Source of the DNA: Syntrophomonadaceae bacterium
GTDB taxonomy: Bacteria; Bacillota; Ch66; Ch109
Direction of reading: 5' to 3'
Assembly: GCA_012519455.1 (NCBI GenBank)
Contig: JAAYQE010000119.1
Span: 159-64,158 of the forward strand
Length of the DNA: 64,000 nt
Part shown: piece by piece, positions 7,675-41,171 of the stretch
Layout of the letters: the number at the start of each line of letters is the position of its first letter
How positions within the stretch are numbered: the stretch's first letter is position 1
The notes under the pieces: model-generated
What the model was told of the DNA's origin: nothing
Database searches by the model: none
The model's input: the letters and a program-made list of their open reading frames with translations, nothing else
Program-made: the position numbers and the translations under genes

Positions 7675-7800
7675 TAAATATACCTCCATTGCTGCAAATT
7701 AATGTTGCGTTAGTCGTTTGAAACGTTTAGTATTTTCCCCCATACTGGCCGGCCGAGAGGTCCAGCACCACATAAAAAGAATTAAGCGTTAAAATTTTCC

Positions 7801-9005: not shown

Positions 9006-10415
9006 TTAGTAGCGTTTTCTTTTGGCGGTGGATGGAATTCCTATCTCGCTGCGATATTTAGCTACGGTACGCCGGGAGATAGGGATCCCCTGCTTGTTTA
9101 AAATTTCCGTGATCTGTTGATCACTAAAAGGCCGGCTAATATCTTCTGACTCCACTATTTCCCGAATTAATTTTTGGATACTGGGAGCTGAAATTCCCAT
9201 TCCCTGCTCATCACTAATTCCACTGCTGAAAAAAAACTTAAATTCATGAACGCCCTGGGGACTTTGCAGGTATTTATTGGCCGTTGCCCGACTTACGGTA
9301 GATTCATGTATACCCAATTTTTCGGCTACCTGTTTCAGCGTAAGCGGCCGTAAGCGCTTGACCCCATGGAGTAAAAATTCCCTCTGGAACTCTACCAAAC
9401 AACAAGCTACCCGGTAAAGCGTATATCGACGTTGCTCAAGGCTGCGAATCAACCAGGTCGCTGCATTGAGCTTGTTTTCCAGGAACTTGCGCGCCTCCTG
9501 TTCATTCACTTGTTGTCCCATTAATAAGGAACGATACTGATTATTAATTCCCAGTCGAGGTACCAAGGTATCATTAAGCAGTACCACAAACTCATCGTCA
9601 ATTCTTTCCACAAACACATCCGGCGCTACATATCGAATCTCATTTAATCTACTAAATTGATCGCCCGGCCGTGGATTCAACTGGCGGATCAGATCGACAA
9701 TGCTCTGTACTTCCTGAATACTAATGTTGAGGCTAGAAGCAATTCGGTTCCATCTACCGCGGGCCACATCATCCAAATGCTCCCGCACCACCTTTTCCGT
9801 TAGGGCATTCAACTGGTCTAATTGCTTTAATTGCAACAACAAACACTCACACAGACCTCGGGCCCCTACTCCCGTAGGGTCAAAAGTTTGCAGAACCGAT
9901 AAAACTTGTTCTAGTTCCGCTTCCGAACATTCTAATTTAGCCGCGATCTCCCCCAAAGGTACCCTTAAATAACCGTAATCATCCAGACAGCCTAACAAAT
10001 ACTGGCCTATTTCCCGCTCCCGACCCTCCGTAAAGGCCAGGTCTAACTGTACCTGAAGGTGCTCTTGTAAACTGGGCCCCTCGGTTAAAAAATTTTCAAA
10101 AGAGTAGGCCGGATACTCTTCCCGAGGTTGTCGTACATAACCTAAGTCACTACGATCCGAAAAATATTCCTGCCAATCAATATCAAATTTTTCCCCTGTC
10201 TCCCCAGTATCAAACGAGGAATCACTCGCCGCGGCTTCATTATATCCTTCGTTTTCTTCCTGAACTTCCAAAAAAGGATTCTCCTGCAATTCTTTCTGTA
10301 AGTATTGGTGTAGTTCTATCGCGGAAAGCTGCAGTACTGTAATGGCCTGTCGCAATTCCGGCGTCATAATCAGGCGCTGTACTTGCTCCACATTTAATCC
10401 TAATCCGAGGCGCAT
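9006..10415 (-). CDS. rpoN: RNA polymerase sigma-54 factor
   Basis: 469 aa. N-terminal MRLGLGLNVEQVQRLIMTPELRQAI and the C-terminal RpoN box ISRRTVAKYR. Confidence 0.9.
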   Translation of the reverse strand: MRLGLGLNVEQVQRLIMTPELRQAITVLQLSAIELHQYLQKELQENPFLEVQEENEGYNEAAASDSSFDTGETGEKFDIDWQEYFSDRSDLGYVRQPREEYPAYSFENFLTEGPSLQEHLQVQLDLAFTEGREREIGQYLLGCLDDYGYLRVPLGEIAAKLECSEAELEQVLSVLQTFDPTGVGARGLCECLLLQLKQLDQLNALTEKVVREHLDDVARGRWNRIASSLNISIQEVQSIVDLIRQLNPRPGDQFSRLNEIRYVAPDVFVERIDDEFVVLLNDTLVPRLGINNQYRSLLMGQQVNEQEARKFLENKLNAATWLIRSLEQRRYTLYRVACCLVEFQREFLLHGVKRLRPLTLKQVAEKLGIHESTVSRATANKYLQSPQGVHEFKFFFSSGISDEQGMGISAPSIQKLIREIVESEDISRPFSDQQITEILNKQGIPISRRTVAKYRSEIGIPSTAKRKRY

Positions 10416-10443
10416 TCTATCCCCCCCTATTTACCAGGAGTAG

Positions 10444-11400
10444 TCAGACGGTCAAGTTTCCCTCCCGTAAATCTCTAGCGATTTCCTCCAGGCGACGCAT
10501 ACGATGATTAACCCCGGATTTACCCAGCCGAGGTTCTACCAGGTCCCCCAGTTCTTTAAGACTAGCTTCTGGATGTTTTAAGCGCACTTCAGCTACTTAC
10601 TTAAGTGTAGGCGGCAACCAATCTAATCCCATCTTATCAGCGATATATTGAATATGCTCAACCTGACGTAAACCAGTCCGTACCGCCTTTTCTACATTAG
10701 CGGTATCACAATTAACCTGGCGGTTGACTTGATTACGCAAACCTTTACGCAGGCGAATATCTTCAAATTGCAGCAAAGCCGCATGGGCCCCAATTAGACT
10801 TAAAAAATCCGCAATCTGATCAGCCTCTTTAAGATATACTACGGCCATCTGTTTGCGTTGCACAATTCGTGCCCGTAGTTTAACCCGCTCCAACTGCTTA
10901 ACCAGTTCTCCGGCAAAGTGACTCCGGCTTAACACCATTTCTAAGTGATAACCTGATTCTGGGTTGCTGATCGAACCACATCCCAAAAACACGCCGCGAA
11001 GATAAGCGCGTAAACAACATTGACGCCGGACTAGGGAAGAGCGAATTCCCTCTTCCACCTTGCGTCCTCGGAATATCCCCAGCTGCCTCAGATACAAATC
11101 CTGAGATTTAGGGATCATCAACCGTACCAGGTAACGCTTTCGCTTGTGCAACCGAGTTTGTTGGCGCACCAACAATAACACCGGCCAGGCATATAAATGC
11201 TTACTTAAACGAAAAACCCGACGCGCTACCGCTGCATTATCCGTAGAAACAGTAAATGATAGTTGTTGGCCGGTACTAATTCGTAAAATCCCGCTCGTTC
11301 GAAGTATAGCGGCAAACTCCGCTAAACGACAACAGTTTTTTTCGAAATCAACCCGGGCCAATTCATTTTTAACCTGGTTAGAAAAAGTTCCGGGCGCCAT
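10444..11400 (-). pseudogene. whiA: whiA (sporulation/cell-division DNA-binding regulator) interrupted by an in-frame TAA at 10597-10599
   Basis: ORF 10597..11400 encodes a WhiA N-terminal region with the LAGLIDADG-like fold (MAPGTFSNQVKNELARV...) and ends ...DWLPPTLK*. The same frame continues after the TAA as [50 protein letters not shown], the conserved WhiA C-terminal HTH, to TGA at 10444-10446. The stop replaces a position that is normally E/Q/K, one nucleotide away from TAA. Confidence 0.8.
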
Positions 11401-11420: not shown

Positions 11421-12698
11421 TTATTCATTCGATATAATTAAATTAATCACCGTCTGGGCTAAGCGCTGCGGGTTATGCCGCACCAGATCGCTTTGATCTA
11501 GTAGGTTTTCCTGCACCACCCCAACCCCTAGTTTGGCCAACCCCTGAGTGTTTACTTTTACCGGGTAGGCCCCCTGCGTCTCATATTTTTTCAACTGTTT
11601 TCGCAGGGCCAGTCGATTGTTTACAATAATATAATCGACTAAATTACAGCCGCAGTGTTCATAAATCGCTTGTAAATGATCCGAAGCTGTATAACCATCC
11701 GTTTCCCCGGGCTGGGTCATGACGTTACAGATATAAATTTTTTTGCCGCGAGACTGGCGTATAGCTTCAACGATTCCTTCTACTAGTAAGTTAGGAATAA
11801 TACTCGTATACAAACTGCCCGGGCCTAGGATAATAGCCTCGGCCTGGGCGATAGCCTTCAGGCTTTCATCAACCGGCTGCGGGTTGCTCGGTTTTAAATA
11901 CACCCGTTTGATATGCCCCTTTAACCCGGTTATCTGGGTTTCACCTTCAACCATTTGGCCATCCATCATCTCCGCACATAGCACAGCCTGGGCAAGCGTA
12001 GCCGGCAAAACCTGTCCGCGTACGGCCAGCACCTTACTTAACTCCTGAATGGCATGGACAAATCCCCCGGCCATCTCCGAAAGCGCAACCAGCAGCAGGT
12101 TACCCAGCGAATGCCCGGTTAGACCCTGACCCTGCTTAAACCGATAGCTTAGAACTTCTTCCATAACCGTTTCTTTATCTGCCAAGGCTACCAAACAGTT
12201 ACGAATATCTCCCGGCGGAAGTACTCCCAGTTCGGTCCGCAGTCTTCCAGAACTTCCCCCATCATCAGTTACCGTAACTATGGCGGTAATATTACTGGTA
12301 TATGTTTTTAAACCGCGAAGCAATACCGAAAGGCCGGTCCCGCCTCCCAACACAACAATCCGCGGCCCGTTTTTTAGCACCCGACGCTGATATAAAATAT
12401 CTACCAAGGCTTCGTTCGATCCTGGCCACAATGATACCCGCAAAGATTTAAATATCTGACGTAAACCCAAGGTTAGCAACAAAAGGCCCAGAAAGACGGT
12501 CACTATCCCGCCCAAAGCCGGGAAATCCCGGCCGATAAGCGTATAAAGCATCTTGCTCAGTCCATGGTCAACCTGCAAAAACAGTTGTCCGCTGATGGAG
12601 GTTACCCCAAATCCGATGACCATAAGGCCAATAATAATCAATAACAGCCAACGTTTAACCCGCAGACCTGGATAAAGCCATTTTAAAAGCTTCATCAA
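11421..12698 (-). CDS. YvcK/CofD-family gluconeogenesis/morphogenesis factor with an N-terminal two-TM extension
   Basis: The VVLGGGTGLS signature and the rest of the YvcK fold. An N-terminal extension of about 100 aa contains two predicted TM helices. Its position between rapZ and whiA matches the Bacillus yvcJ-yvcK-whiA arrangement. Confidence 0.8.
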   Translation of the reverse strand: MMKLLKWLYPGLRVKRWLLLIIIGLMVIGFGVTSISGQLFLQVDHGLSKMLYTLIGRDFPALGGIVTVFLGLLLLTLGLRQIFKSLRVSLWPGSNEALVDILYQRRVLKNGPRIVVLGGGTGLSVLLRGLKTYTSNITAIVTVTDDGGSSGRLRTELGVLPPGDIRNCLVALADKETVMEEVLSYRFKQGQGLTGHSLGNLLLVALSEMAGGFVHAIQELSKVLAVRGQVLPATLAQAVLCAEMMDGQMVEGETQITGLKGHIKRVYLKPSNPQPVDESLKAIAQAEAIILGPGSLYTSIIPNLLVEGIVEAIRQSRGKKIYICNVMTQPGETDGYTASDHLQAIYEHCGCNLVDYIIVNNRLALRKQLKKYETQGAYPVKVNTQGLAKLGVGVVQENLLDQSDLVRHNPQRLAQTVINLIISNE

Positions 12699-12723: not shown

Positions 12724-13611
12724 CTAACCACTAACCGGAGAACGAAGCAGATCACGATGTTTAACTAGGGACGGATAACCGGTTTCTAGTAGGATACGAC
12801 TAATTTCCGTAGATAAAACAACCGAACGATGCCGACCGCCGGTACAACCAATAGCGATCCCCAAATGCGTCTTACCTTCCCCTATATAACGAGGAATTAA
12901 AAACTGCAGAAGTTGGATGTACTGGCCCAGAAAACTACGGGTCTCTTTTTGGCTCAAAACAAATTCCCGTACCGGTTCATCTAGGCCGCTTAATTCCCGT
13001 AAATCTTCTACATAATAGGGATTAGGCAGAAAACGCACATCCATTACTAGATCCGCATCCATTGGGATGCCGTATTTATATCCAAAAGAAGTGATACTCA
13101 AAGTCAACTGGCTATCCGTCGAACGGGAACCATAGAGATCGTTAATTTGCTTTCTCAATTCTTGAACGCTCAAGTTTGAGGTATCAATAACCTTATTGGC
13201 CCGGCCACGTAGTTCCGCTAGACGCTGCCTTTCCAAAGCAATACTTTCCAGAATCCGACCTAACGGAGACAGCGGATGCCGGCGTCGAGATTCTTTATAA
13301 CGCCGGACTAAAATATCATCTGCCGCCTCCAAGAAAAGAATCTCATACTCAAGCCCCTGTTGGTCCAGGGCATCCAAAGCCTCAAAAAGCGAATCAAAAA
13401 AGCGTCCTCCACGGATATCAATCACCAGCCCGACCCGCGTAATCTTTCCTTCAGACTGAGCACATAATTCGATAAACTTAGGCAACAAACCCGGGGGAAG
13501 GTTATCTACACAATAGTAACCTAAATCCTCCATACAATGTACAGCCTGACTCTTTCCCGCCCCAGACAGACCAGTGATGATCACGATTTGCAAATCTAAT
13601 TTTCCTGTCAC
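12724..13611 (-). CDS. rapZ: RNase adaptor / nucleotide-binding protein RapZ (YvcJ)
   Basis: N-terminal P-loop ITGLSGAGKS and a second C-terminal nucleotide motif. 295 aa. Confidence 0.85.
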   Translation of the reverse strand: MTGKLDLQIVIITGLSGAGKSQAVHCMEDLGYYCVDNLPPGLLPKFIELCAQSEGKITRVGLVIDIRGGRFFDSLFEALDALDQQGLEYEILFLEAADDILVRRYKESRRRHPLSPLGRILESIALERQRLAELRGRANKVIDTSNLSVQELRKQINDLYGSRSTDSQLTLSITSFGYKYGIPMDADLVMDVRFLPNPYYVEDLRELSGLDEPVREFVLSQKETRSFLGQYIQLLQFLIPRYIGEGKTHLGIAIGCTGGRHRSVVLSTEISRILLETGYPSLVKHRDLLRSPVSG

Positions 13612-36754: not shown

Positions 36755-37534
36755 TCACACGACAATCACCCGACCAGTCGCTACGGTGGCCACCTGCACC
36801 GGGCCACTACCGGCTTGCTGTAATACCCGCGCACATTCTCCGCAGGTAATACCGCTGGTTAACACATCATCAATTAGAAGAATCGGCTGACCGCGTACCC
36901 GCTCCGGCTGCTGAGCTCGAAAAACTCCTGATTGAATATTACTTAACCGTTCACGTCGCCCCAATCGAGCCTGGGGAGGAGTATGGACCACCCGCATCAA
37001 AACCTCTCTTCCCCATTCCCAGTTTAATTCCTGGGCCACCACCTCCGCCAGTAGTTCCGCCTGATTAAAACCGCGTTCAAAAGCCCGCTTAGGATGCAGC
37101 GGCACTGGTACCACCAGCGCTGGTTCAATTCACAACTCTTCTTTTATCACCCCGGCCAATAATTTACCCAAAGGACGAGCCAGAGTAATCTTACCCTGGT
37201 ACTTAAACGCATGGATCGCCTCACGCAGCAAACCTTCATAAAGGCCGATCGCCCGCGCTCGAGAAAATAAGGGCGGATGATTTTGACATTCCCTGCAGTA
37301 AAAAGCCAATTCAGGTCGCGGTCTCTGACTAAAAGCACCATGATTTTCCGCCTCGTACCGGCCACAGCATTCGCAGATACTTTGTGTCCTTCGCGCTCCT
37401 AAACGCTCCACGCATCTAAAACAAACGACCGCTCCAGGATAACGACCGATAGACCAGGACCGGCCGCATAACGGACATTCCTCCGGCCGGGGATAAACTA
37501 AATCCAAAAACGTATTCCAAATCCATTTAAACAT
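36755..37534 (-). pseudogene. comFC: comFC (ComF-family phosphoribosyltransferase competence protein) interrupted by an in-frame TGA at 37130-37132
   Basis: The N-terminal zinc-finger part (CPLCGR...CFRCV...CECCGR...CREC) ends ...GVIKEEL*. The same frame continues as IEPALVVPVPLHPKRAFERGFNQAELLA... (PRT-domain core) from GTG at 37114. The two ORF-track fragments are in one frame, separated only by the TGA. Confidence 0.8.
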
Positions 37535-39827: not shown

Positions 39828-40592
39828 CTAGCCCATTTTAGCCAGTTGTTCGTGTAAATATTCGTTCAATACTTTGATATAAGTACCCTTCATGCCTAAA
39901 GAACGGGCTTGAATGACCCCAGCACTTTCCAGCTTGCGTAAAGCATTAACAATCACCGAACGCGTTAACATATACTTATCCGCCAGACGTATCGCCACTA
40001 CAAAACCTTCGTCTCCCTCTAATTCTTTAAAAATATACTTAACCGCTTCAATCTCCGAATAAGAAAGCACGGCTAAGGCTTGGGCTACAGCATCTTTTTT
40101 TCGATTTATTTTTTCCGCTTGTTCCGACAGGAAACGCAAAATCTGCAAACCAATAACCGTTGCCCCTACCTCAGCTAAAATAATCGCCGACGTTGAAAAC
40201 TCCTCCGGTTTGGCCAACACTACGGTACCCAGCCGAAGCGGCCCCCCATAGATTGGAATAACAGTTAACAAAGTCTCCGGTGCTACGCGACAACCCACTC
40301 CAGTCTCAAAAAAACTAGCCAGCCATTCTAGATACTCTTCAGTTAAAATTGTCTCACTCAGTTGCCGTCCACCTATCATAGGCTGTGATAATCCGGGGTA
40401 ATTACAGCTACCCAAGATTTCACCCTTCTCACCAATAATACAAACATGACTTTCGGTGAGTCGAGACAAACTACTAGATAATTCTTCAAAATCAGGAGGA
40501 TTATCTGATTGGCGCTGTACTAACTGATTCAGGAGTCTGGTCTTCCCTAATAGAACCTCTAGTTCGTTCAAGATCAGATTCTCCTTTCTCAA
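39828..40592 (-). CDS. codY: GTP-sensing pleiotropic repressor CodY
   Basis: 254 aa. GAF-like N-terminus and the C-terminal HTH ...RSVIVNALRKLESAGVIQARSLGMKGTYIKV. Confidence 0.9.
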   Translation of the reverse strand: MRKENLILNELEVLLGKTRLLNQLVQRQSDNPPDFEELSSSLSRLTESHVCIIGEKGEILGSCNYPGLSQPMIGGRQLSETILTEEYLEWLASFFETGVGCRVAPETLLTVIPIYGGPLRLGTVVLAKPEEFSTSAIILAEVGATVIGLQILRFLSEQAEKINRKKDAVAQALAVLSYSEIEAVKYIFKELEGDEGFVVAIRLADKYMLTRSVIVNALRKLESAGVIQARSLGMKGTYIKVLNEYLHEQLAKMG

Positions 40593-40730
40593 AATTTATG
40601 AACCATTTATTATAGTATGAATATTTCAACAGCGAGTATCAGGTTTCCTGCCTAAATTAAAATTTTATTAAAAAAAGTATAAAATTTTGTCATTAGTGGA
40701 TACAATACCTGTAATTTTGCGGTTATTTCA

Positions 40731-41171
40731 TCAATAATTAACCGTCGCTTTTCTCTGGCGACGGTTGATGGGGATCAAAGGCCGAATTAATTGGCGTAGA
40801 TCAATTTGGTGAATAACCGGGTCCGAATCCAACCAGCAAATTTCTTCTATCCCTTTACCGCTTTTACCTGGTTCGTCCCCTTCTGCTACAAGACTTAAAT
40901 AAAAATCCTGCTTTTGACGCCAAAGACGCTGTAAGATCTCCACGGTCTGATCATTTGAACCGCAGTCAACCACCACCAGTTCATCAAAGGCACAAAAACT
41001 ACGTTGTAATCGACGTAAGCGCCAAATAATTTCTTCGATAATTTCATCCTGGTTCCGTACCATCACTACCCAAACCACGGAGCGACGTCTTTTTTTTATT
41101 TTCTGCCGACTCCATACTAGTCCCCATAAGAGAACCACTACGATTATTACCCCCGAAAATAACCATACCAT
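40731..41171 (-). CDS. Small membrane-anchored protein with a truncated glycosyltransferase-family-2-like nucleotide-binding fold
   Basis: N-terminal TM helix, then VVWVVMVRNQDEIIEEII...FDELVVVDCGSNDQTVEIL...ICWLDSD. This resembles the first half of a GT2 domain. Only 146 aa. Confidence 0.45.
   Translation of the reverse strand: MVWLFSGVIIVVVLLWGLVWSRQKIKKRRRSVVWVVMVRNQDEIIEEIIWRLRRLQRSFCAFDELVVVDCGSNDQTVEILQRLWRQKQDFYLSLVAEGDEPGKSGKGIEEICWLDSDPVIHQIDLRQLIRPLIPINRRQRKATVNY

Follow-up and report, generated by a model that had tools for sequence, protein, structure and literature searches.

Does the whiA gene of a bacterium that NCBI assigns to the Syntrophomonadaceae end early in the living organism, or does its in-frame stop codon exist only in an assembled consensus? 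The gene lies in a 64-kb stretch of a metagenome-assembled genome (MAG), which is 64,000 nucleotides long and is called the window below. If the stop codon is genuine, it is also necessary to ask how old it is, what it would remove from the protein, and whether the two pieces of the gene could still serve a function together.

A single stop codon interrupts an otherwise intact whiA gene

The whiA gene occupies positions 10444-11400 of the minus strand and carries one in-frame TAA (plus-strand ‘tta’) at 10597-10599. Minus-strand translation yields 267 codons, the TAA, 50 further codons, and the natural TGA at 10444-10446, which agrees with the single in-frame stop that an earlier note had reported. 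NCBI annotates whiA of the MAG as two coding sequences. The first, NLK52160.1, is identical to the 267-aa product, and the second, NLK52159.1, is a 47-aa coding sequence called in frame from a GTG at 10585-10587, 9 nt after the TAA. The features of the gene and its neighborhood are as follows:

10600-11400, minus strand: 5′ piece of whiA (NLK52160.1), 267 codons, with WhiA_N, LAGLIDADG_WhiA, and the long linker helix (first half of Pfam HTH_WhiA)
10597-10599, minus strand: in-frame TAA, codon 268; GAA (Glu) in contigs L001-L004 described below; the differing base is 10599, G to T on the coding strand
10444-10596, minus strand: 3′ piece of whiA (NLK52159.1), 50 codons and the natural TGA, with the three-helix, sigma-4-like helix-turn-helix (HTH)
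11073, minus strand: second private change in whiA, TTC (Phe110) here and ATC (Ile) in conspecific contigs
9006-10415, minus strand: rpoN (sigma-54), with all three sigma-54 domains, 28 nt downstream of the natural stop of whiA
11421-12698, minus strand: yvcK/glmR-type gene (CofD family), immediately upstream of whiA
12724-13611, minus strand: rapZ/yvcJ-type gene, the first gene of the conserved yvcJ-glmR-whiA cluster

Domain models place the two pieces end to end. WhiA_N (PF10298, E 3.8e-24) and LAGLIDADG_WhiA (PF14527, E 9.7e-30) both fall in the 267-aa piece, upstream of HTH_WhiA (PF02650), for which the 5′ piece matches profile positions 1-42 (E 1.4e-11) and the 3′ piece matches positions 45-84 (E 7.8e-16). 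Likewise, the NCBIfam equivalog model for WhiA, TIGR00647, is matched at positions 1-260 (257 bits versus a cutoff of 44.1) and 263-303 of 304 by the two pieces. This colinearity exceeds chance by far. Because the pieces are colinear on the WhiA models, they constitute one gene in which exactly one codon has been replaced by a stop, and the earlier description of two recognizable halves in a single frame is upheld.

Other hallmarks of the family are also present. The protein has the N-terminal WhiA_N domain and the degenerate LAGLIDADG_WhiA domain, all conserved WhiA residues are kept in both halves, and the RapZ-like and CofD-family genes stand on the same strand in the order yvcJ(rapZ)-glmR(yvcK)-whiA. 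The HTH is conserved but is not joined to the body of the protein in one open reading frame (ORF), since the TAA lies between them, whereas the conspecific alleles are joined. Among 22 homologues, the column that holds the stop contains Gln in 11, Glu in nine, Asp in one, and Met in one. The earlier note had expected Glu, Gln, or Lys at this position; the first two are indeed the usual residues, but Lys occurs in none of the 22.

Near-identical contigs encode full-length WhiA

The protein cluster formed by the truncated product at 90% identity has one other member, P0121, which is a full-length WhiA of 318 aa with Glu at the stop position and Ile at residue 110. Four contigs encode it:

L001: ENA ERZ773357
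L002: ERZ925077, an assembly of SRR3184648 (biogas fermenter)
L003: ERZ27280805
L004: Logan assembly of SRR3184648

All four come from biogas metagenome assemblies, and the number of independent samples behind them is at least two and probably three. They are 99.83-99.88% identical to the window (99.88% over 4839 nt), and all have GAA and the 318-aa WhiA. Across the 1041 nt that span whiA, the window differs from all four contigs at 11073 and 10599 only, and the 4839-nt overlap contains six differences, every one of them private to the window (two synonymous, three missense, and one nonsense). The next nearest WhiA proteins are 63-68% identical, and each of them is full length and has Gln or Glu at the stop site. 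Judged by these alignments, the stop is a single G-to-T substitution, either very recent or a miscall, that is private to one MAG. The comparison thus bears out the earlier proposal of a one-nucleotide change, from GAA to TAA. It does not sustain the idea that the stop is a property of the organism, because conspecific contigs with GAA make it at most a strain-level polymorphism rather than a characteristic of the species.

Two further details concern the substitutions themselves. The change at 10599 turns AAGGAAGT into a perfect tandem AAGTAAGT, which could be the footprint expected from a transient-misalignment substitution. The second private change affects residue 110, which is aliphatic (I, L, or V) in 22 of 22 aligned WhiA homologues and is Phe only in the window. 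Both private changes in whiA are therefore nonsynonymous, and none is synonymous.

We also sought additional copies of the allele. No other contig of the ENA/JGI/Logan index encodes exactly the 267-aa product, and the allele is thus found in one assembly only. The yvcK protein and the ComFA-like helicase of the window have no exact match on record, and look-ups of exact products revealed no second contig of the window’s own haplotype. GTDB species-representative genomes and JGI metagenome contigs were scanned for an exact 41-mer that surrounds the stop and has N at the variable base, with zero hits in each. In a protein-guided scan of the GTDB representatives, the nearest WhiA was 51% identical, and no genome of the same species or genus was found. 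This lineage is essentially without reference genomes, although metagenome proteins with 63-68% identity exist.

A look-up with rpoN recovered two more contigs, L088 (ERZ925054/SRR3184675) and L089 (ERZ27280797), that both start at window position 10492. This start falls within the 3′ end of whiA, 105 nt from the stop site, such that their coverage begins beyond codon 268. These contigs represent a third haplotype, with T at 10443, just past the natural stop of whiA, and A at 7730, where the window has C at both positions. Contigs L001, L002, and L003 end at 9355-9363, all inside rpoN. The shared break points (10492 and 9355-9363) suggest strain heterogeneity in these populations. A literature search for PRJNA311381 yielded no match.

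The contigs also differ from one another in glmR/yvcK. At window position 12200, one A is missing in L002 (gene at 842-2115) and L003 (90-1363), which divides the product into 168 and 257 aa, whereas the gene is intact in the window, L001, and L004. Given that L002 and L004 derive from one run and yet differ by this 1-bp indel, the deletion reflects either a strain mixture within the SRR3184648 sample or an assembler error.

Weighing a consensus error against a recent mutation

The earlier note had listed an assembly error among its alternatives, and this explanation is still live. We consider it possible, although somewhat doubtful, that the organism has GAA and that a miscalled T at 10599 (coding strand) became fixed in the contig, perhaps through low local coverage, oxidative G-to-T damage to the library, or the choice of a minority variant by the assembler. 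All other assemblies of the species have G here, and the change is a G-to-T transversion, which is the class typical of 8-oxoG artefacts. Furthermore, about 4.4% of random substitutions give stops, and selection removes most real nonsense alleles. Errors are not removed in this way, and a nonsense difference is therefore relatively likelier to be an error than is a silent one. The public contigs of the species also disagree elsewhere, as L002 and L004 do by the 1-bp indel described above, and the species of the MAG is absent from the GTDB representative set that was searched.

Against a consensus error stands the general condition of the sequence. The ORF map of the 64-kb window comprises about 50 long uninterrupted ORFs separated by short intergenic gaps, with no frameshift-type fragmentation seen and no other private gene disruption. 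A contig of 64,952 bp usually implies adequate coverage, in which case substitution errors in an Illumina consensus are rare. This otherwise clean contig argues against a generally error-prone consensus.

Interrupted genes were screened for by examining adjacent same-frame ORFs across the window, and one besides whiA was found. It is a ComF-family gene (comFC/gntX-like) at 36755-37534 on the minus strand, in which an in-frame TGA at 37130-37132 separates the double-zinc-ribbon half from the phosphoribosyltransferase half (positions 7-97 and 113-223 of NF008616). An independent conspecific contig of 14 kb, L005 (ERZ27280797), has this TGA too. Because it is common to both sequences, this TGA is a real shared feature and not an error, and comFC is either a fixed pseudogene or a gene with a leaky TGA. 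A third candidate at 39828-41171 was rejected, as several stops lie between what are unrelated ORFs (a partial GT2-like ORF and codY). The 146-aa ORF upstream of codY (40731-41171, minus strand) matches glycosyltransferase family 2 over only part of the profile (positions 3-50 of 168) and is conserved in L005, where it was likewise called as a gene; it may be either a remnant or a small protein in its own right.

The spectrum of differences between the window and its conspecific contigs provides a second line of evidence. We pooled the L001-L004 overlap with L005 (eight differences in 11,544 nt) and L088/L089 (two intergenic differences in about 4 kb), which gave 16 differences over about 19 kb: five synonymous, three intergenic, seven missense, and one nonsense. 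Random substitutions in the genes of the window were computed to be 72% missense, 23% synonymous, and 4.4% nonsense. Silent and intergenic changes thus make up 50% of those observed versus about 31% expected at random, albeit in a small sample (n = 16). This polymorphism-like excess suggests that most of these 16 differences may be true polymorphisms filtered by selection. For the whiA allele itself, an excess seen among 16 differences is suggestive of a real mutation but would not prove it.

We judge, at somewhat better than even chances, that the stop codon is a genuine and very recent nonsense mutation. On this explanation, a G-to-T change on the coding strand converted Glu268 (GAA) to TAA in the strain or population captured by the MAG, which is compatible with an intact orthologous whiA in near-identical conspecific contigs. 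Two other observations lean weakly in the same direction. The change from Ile to Phe at residue 110, a position that is otherwise always aliphatic, may fit relaxed constraint, and the same operon harbors another disruptive variant, the 1-bp glmR deletion of L002 and L003. Our division of the probability, with somewhat more than half given to a real allele and roughly one third to an artefact, is an estimate by the authors and not a measurement. The share of the artefact was raised to this level because errors include a greater proportion of nonsense changes than real polymorphisms do.

Predicted effect of the truncation

An AlphaFold2 model of the read-through protein (mean pLDDT of 87) has a long helix at residues 206-257, a loop that includes codon 268, and helices at 270-275, 281-287, and 294-313. 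The stop therefore falls within the Pfam HTH_WhiA model and yet, structurally, after the long linker helix and before the three-helix HTH. The earlier note had placed it between the endonuclease-like domain and the HTH, which is right for the structure but not for the Pfam model, and had stated that the product would lack the HTH, which is consistent with the position of all three helices after the stop.

Alignment to the Streptomyces venezuelae WhiA of the RNAP-WhiA-WhiB cryo-EM structures (8DY7 and 8DY9) matches codon 268 with A261. The equivalents of S. venezuelae R266, L274, K287, R293, and R295 are R273, L281, K294, R300, and R302, all of which lie after the stop. In S. venezuelae, the C-terminal domain engages the GACAC motif through base-specific contacts in a sigma-4-like fashion, and developmental division is abolished by R266E, L274A, and K287E and reduced by R293E and R295E (PMC10243135). 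The HTH domain of Streptomyces coelicolor WhiA binds DNA on its own, whereas its LAGLIDADG domain alone does not (PMC3240954). Full affinity further requires the long helix and the N-terminal domain, both of which touch DNA as well (PMC10243135, PMC3240954).

Translation of the nonsense allele would end at codon 267 and would retain the N-terminal and LAGLIDADG-like domains and the long helix while losing the DNA-recognizing, sigma-4-like HTH. Because the equivalents of all the DNA-contacting residues lie after the stop, we predict that the 267-aa product is null for DNA binding, with the body and long helix retained. Streptomyces whiA null mutants are viable. Nulls of Bacillus subtilis are viable as well and grow more slowly in rich medium only (PMC10714963). 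An Enterococcus faecalis yvcL (whiA) null is likewise viable, and the loss of YvcL derepresses yvcJ-glmR-yvcL (PMC10986989). The gene is not essential in Clostridioides difficile by Tn-seq but is essential in Mycobacterium tuberculosis (PMC12548448). Since B. subtilis, E. faecalis, and Streptomyces can all do without whiA, a slow-growing syntroph could plausibly tolerate the effects of its loss. The allele would then be a transient deleterious or neutral polymorphism rather than an adaptation. The earlier view that a nonsense allele of whiA would be biologically notable is thus overstated, because bacteria of other groups can live without whiA (PMC10714963, PMC10986989, PMC12548448).

A large polar effect on rpoN, which does lie immediately downstream as previously noted, is unlikely. 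This gene has its own strong Shine-Dalgarno sequence (-10.4 kcal/mol), and only about 180 nt would be newly untranslated.

Could the two pieces still function, or is the gene decaying?

An intact 3′ piece with a potential start codon raises the question of whether function is kept. Reinitiation at the GTG could supply a separate 47-aa HTH peptide alongside the 267-aa body, or the TAA could be read through or suppressed. Bacterial termination-reinitiation at nearby start codons is known, the in-frame GTG is the very codon from which NCBI annotated a coding sequence, and the 3′ piece is undamaged. We nevertheless regard retained function as very improbable. The GTG has essentially no Shine-Dalgarno pairing (-0.5 kcal/mol, compared with medians of -7.5 for genes of the window and -3.2 for random positions), so that at best an inefficient termination-reinitiation is conceivable there; for the same reason, a naturally split gene was not supported. 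The condition of the 3′ piece is fully explained by a recent mutation, since its DNA is 100% identical to that of the intact conspecific alleles. A split would, moreover, detach the HTH from two other DNA-contacting elements that full affinity requires, the long helix and the N-terminal domain (PMC10243135, PMC3240954).

Readthrough and suppression fare no better. The TAA codon is read by both release factors and is the least leaky stop, and it is also the commonest ordinary stop in the window, ending 23 of 47 long ORFs. This frequency led us to reject reassignment of the code. Programmed readthrough or recoding was rejected as well, as the site is GAA in conspecific contigs and Gln, Glu, Asp, or Met in the 22 homologues; with a sense codon in the conspecifics and all relatives examined, nothing is conserved as a recoding site. 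The low-level readthrough that had been offered as an alternative in the earlier note is disfavored by the same two facts. A tRNA scan limited to the window revealed no tRNA gene that could serve as an ochre suppressor.

The opposite possibility is that whiA is an old pseudogene that was lost in the lineage and is now decaying. An in-frame stop accompanied by one unusual missense change (I110F) and the interruption of comFC in the same genome would fit this history. Its probability is very low indeed, as the gene is intact in conspecific contigs at 99.9% identity and has acquired no indels, no further stops, and no changes in its 3′ piece, with conserved residues kept in both halves. The 150 nt after the stop contain zero differences, and the mutation is therefore too recent for any decay.

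Relationship to known WhiA proteins and implications

Apart from its stop codon, the whiA locus of the window resembles that of known WhiA/YvcL proteins. The same three-part architecture and order are found in the proteins of S. venezuelae (PDB 8DY7 and 8DY9) and Thermotoga maritima (PDB 3HYI), the neighborhood rapZ/yvcJ-yvcK/glmR-whiA is the same, and the equivalents of the DNA-contacting R266, L274, K287, R293, and R295 are kept. The long helix and three-helix HTH also appear in the AlphaFold model of the window protein. The differences are that a TAA at codon 268 unlinks the HTH from the body and that Phe110 replaces a conserved aliphatic residue.

Laboratory alleles offer the closest functional parallel. 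The marker-less stop-codon mutant KS696 of B. subtilis, the delta-yvcL mutant of E. faecalis, and the HTH point mutants of S. venezuelae likewise involve a loss of DNA binding, which is predicted here. Such whiA mutants are viable and have division, segregation, or operon-derepression phenotypes (PMC10714963, PMC10986989, PMC10243135). They were engineered and phenotyped, whereas the allele of the window is natural, or apparently so, and belongs to an uncultured organism known from sequence alone. It also leaves 84% of the protein, and interactions other than DNA binding could in principle persist. The whiA allele also follows the pattern of segregating nonsense polymorphisms and of the ‘internal stop’ pseudogenes found in MAGs and draft genomes, with one private nonsense SNP in a conserved and otherwise intact gene, an intact allele in conspecifics, and no secondary decay. 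Nothing about it is distinctive among them.

There is a slim chance that an HTH-less WhiA is useful, either through its LAGLIDADG-like body and long helix (for example, by protein-protein contacts) or through complementation by a reinitiated 47-aa HTH peptide. If so, the allele would be a natural separation-of-function variant that shows which activities of Firmicute WhiA need DNA binding. A weaker variant of this idea holds that operon-disrupting alleles, such as the whiA stop and the glmR deletion of L002 and L003, might be recurrently selected in anaerobic digesters. Overall, the stop reflects a consensus error or else a recent, ordinary loss-of-function polymorphism affecting a regulator that is dispensable, and neither would involve new biology.

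The finding is mainly an annotation issue, in that the reads decide whether NLK52160.1 and NLK52159.1 ought to be merged into a pseudogene or into a gene. It also illustrates why nonsense codons of single MAGs need read-level support. If the mutation is real, it would provide a naturally occurring truncation that could be used were the organism ever cultured, and it would add further evidence that DNA binding by WhiA is dispensable in a slow-growing Firmicute.
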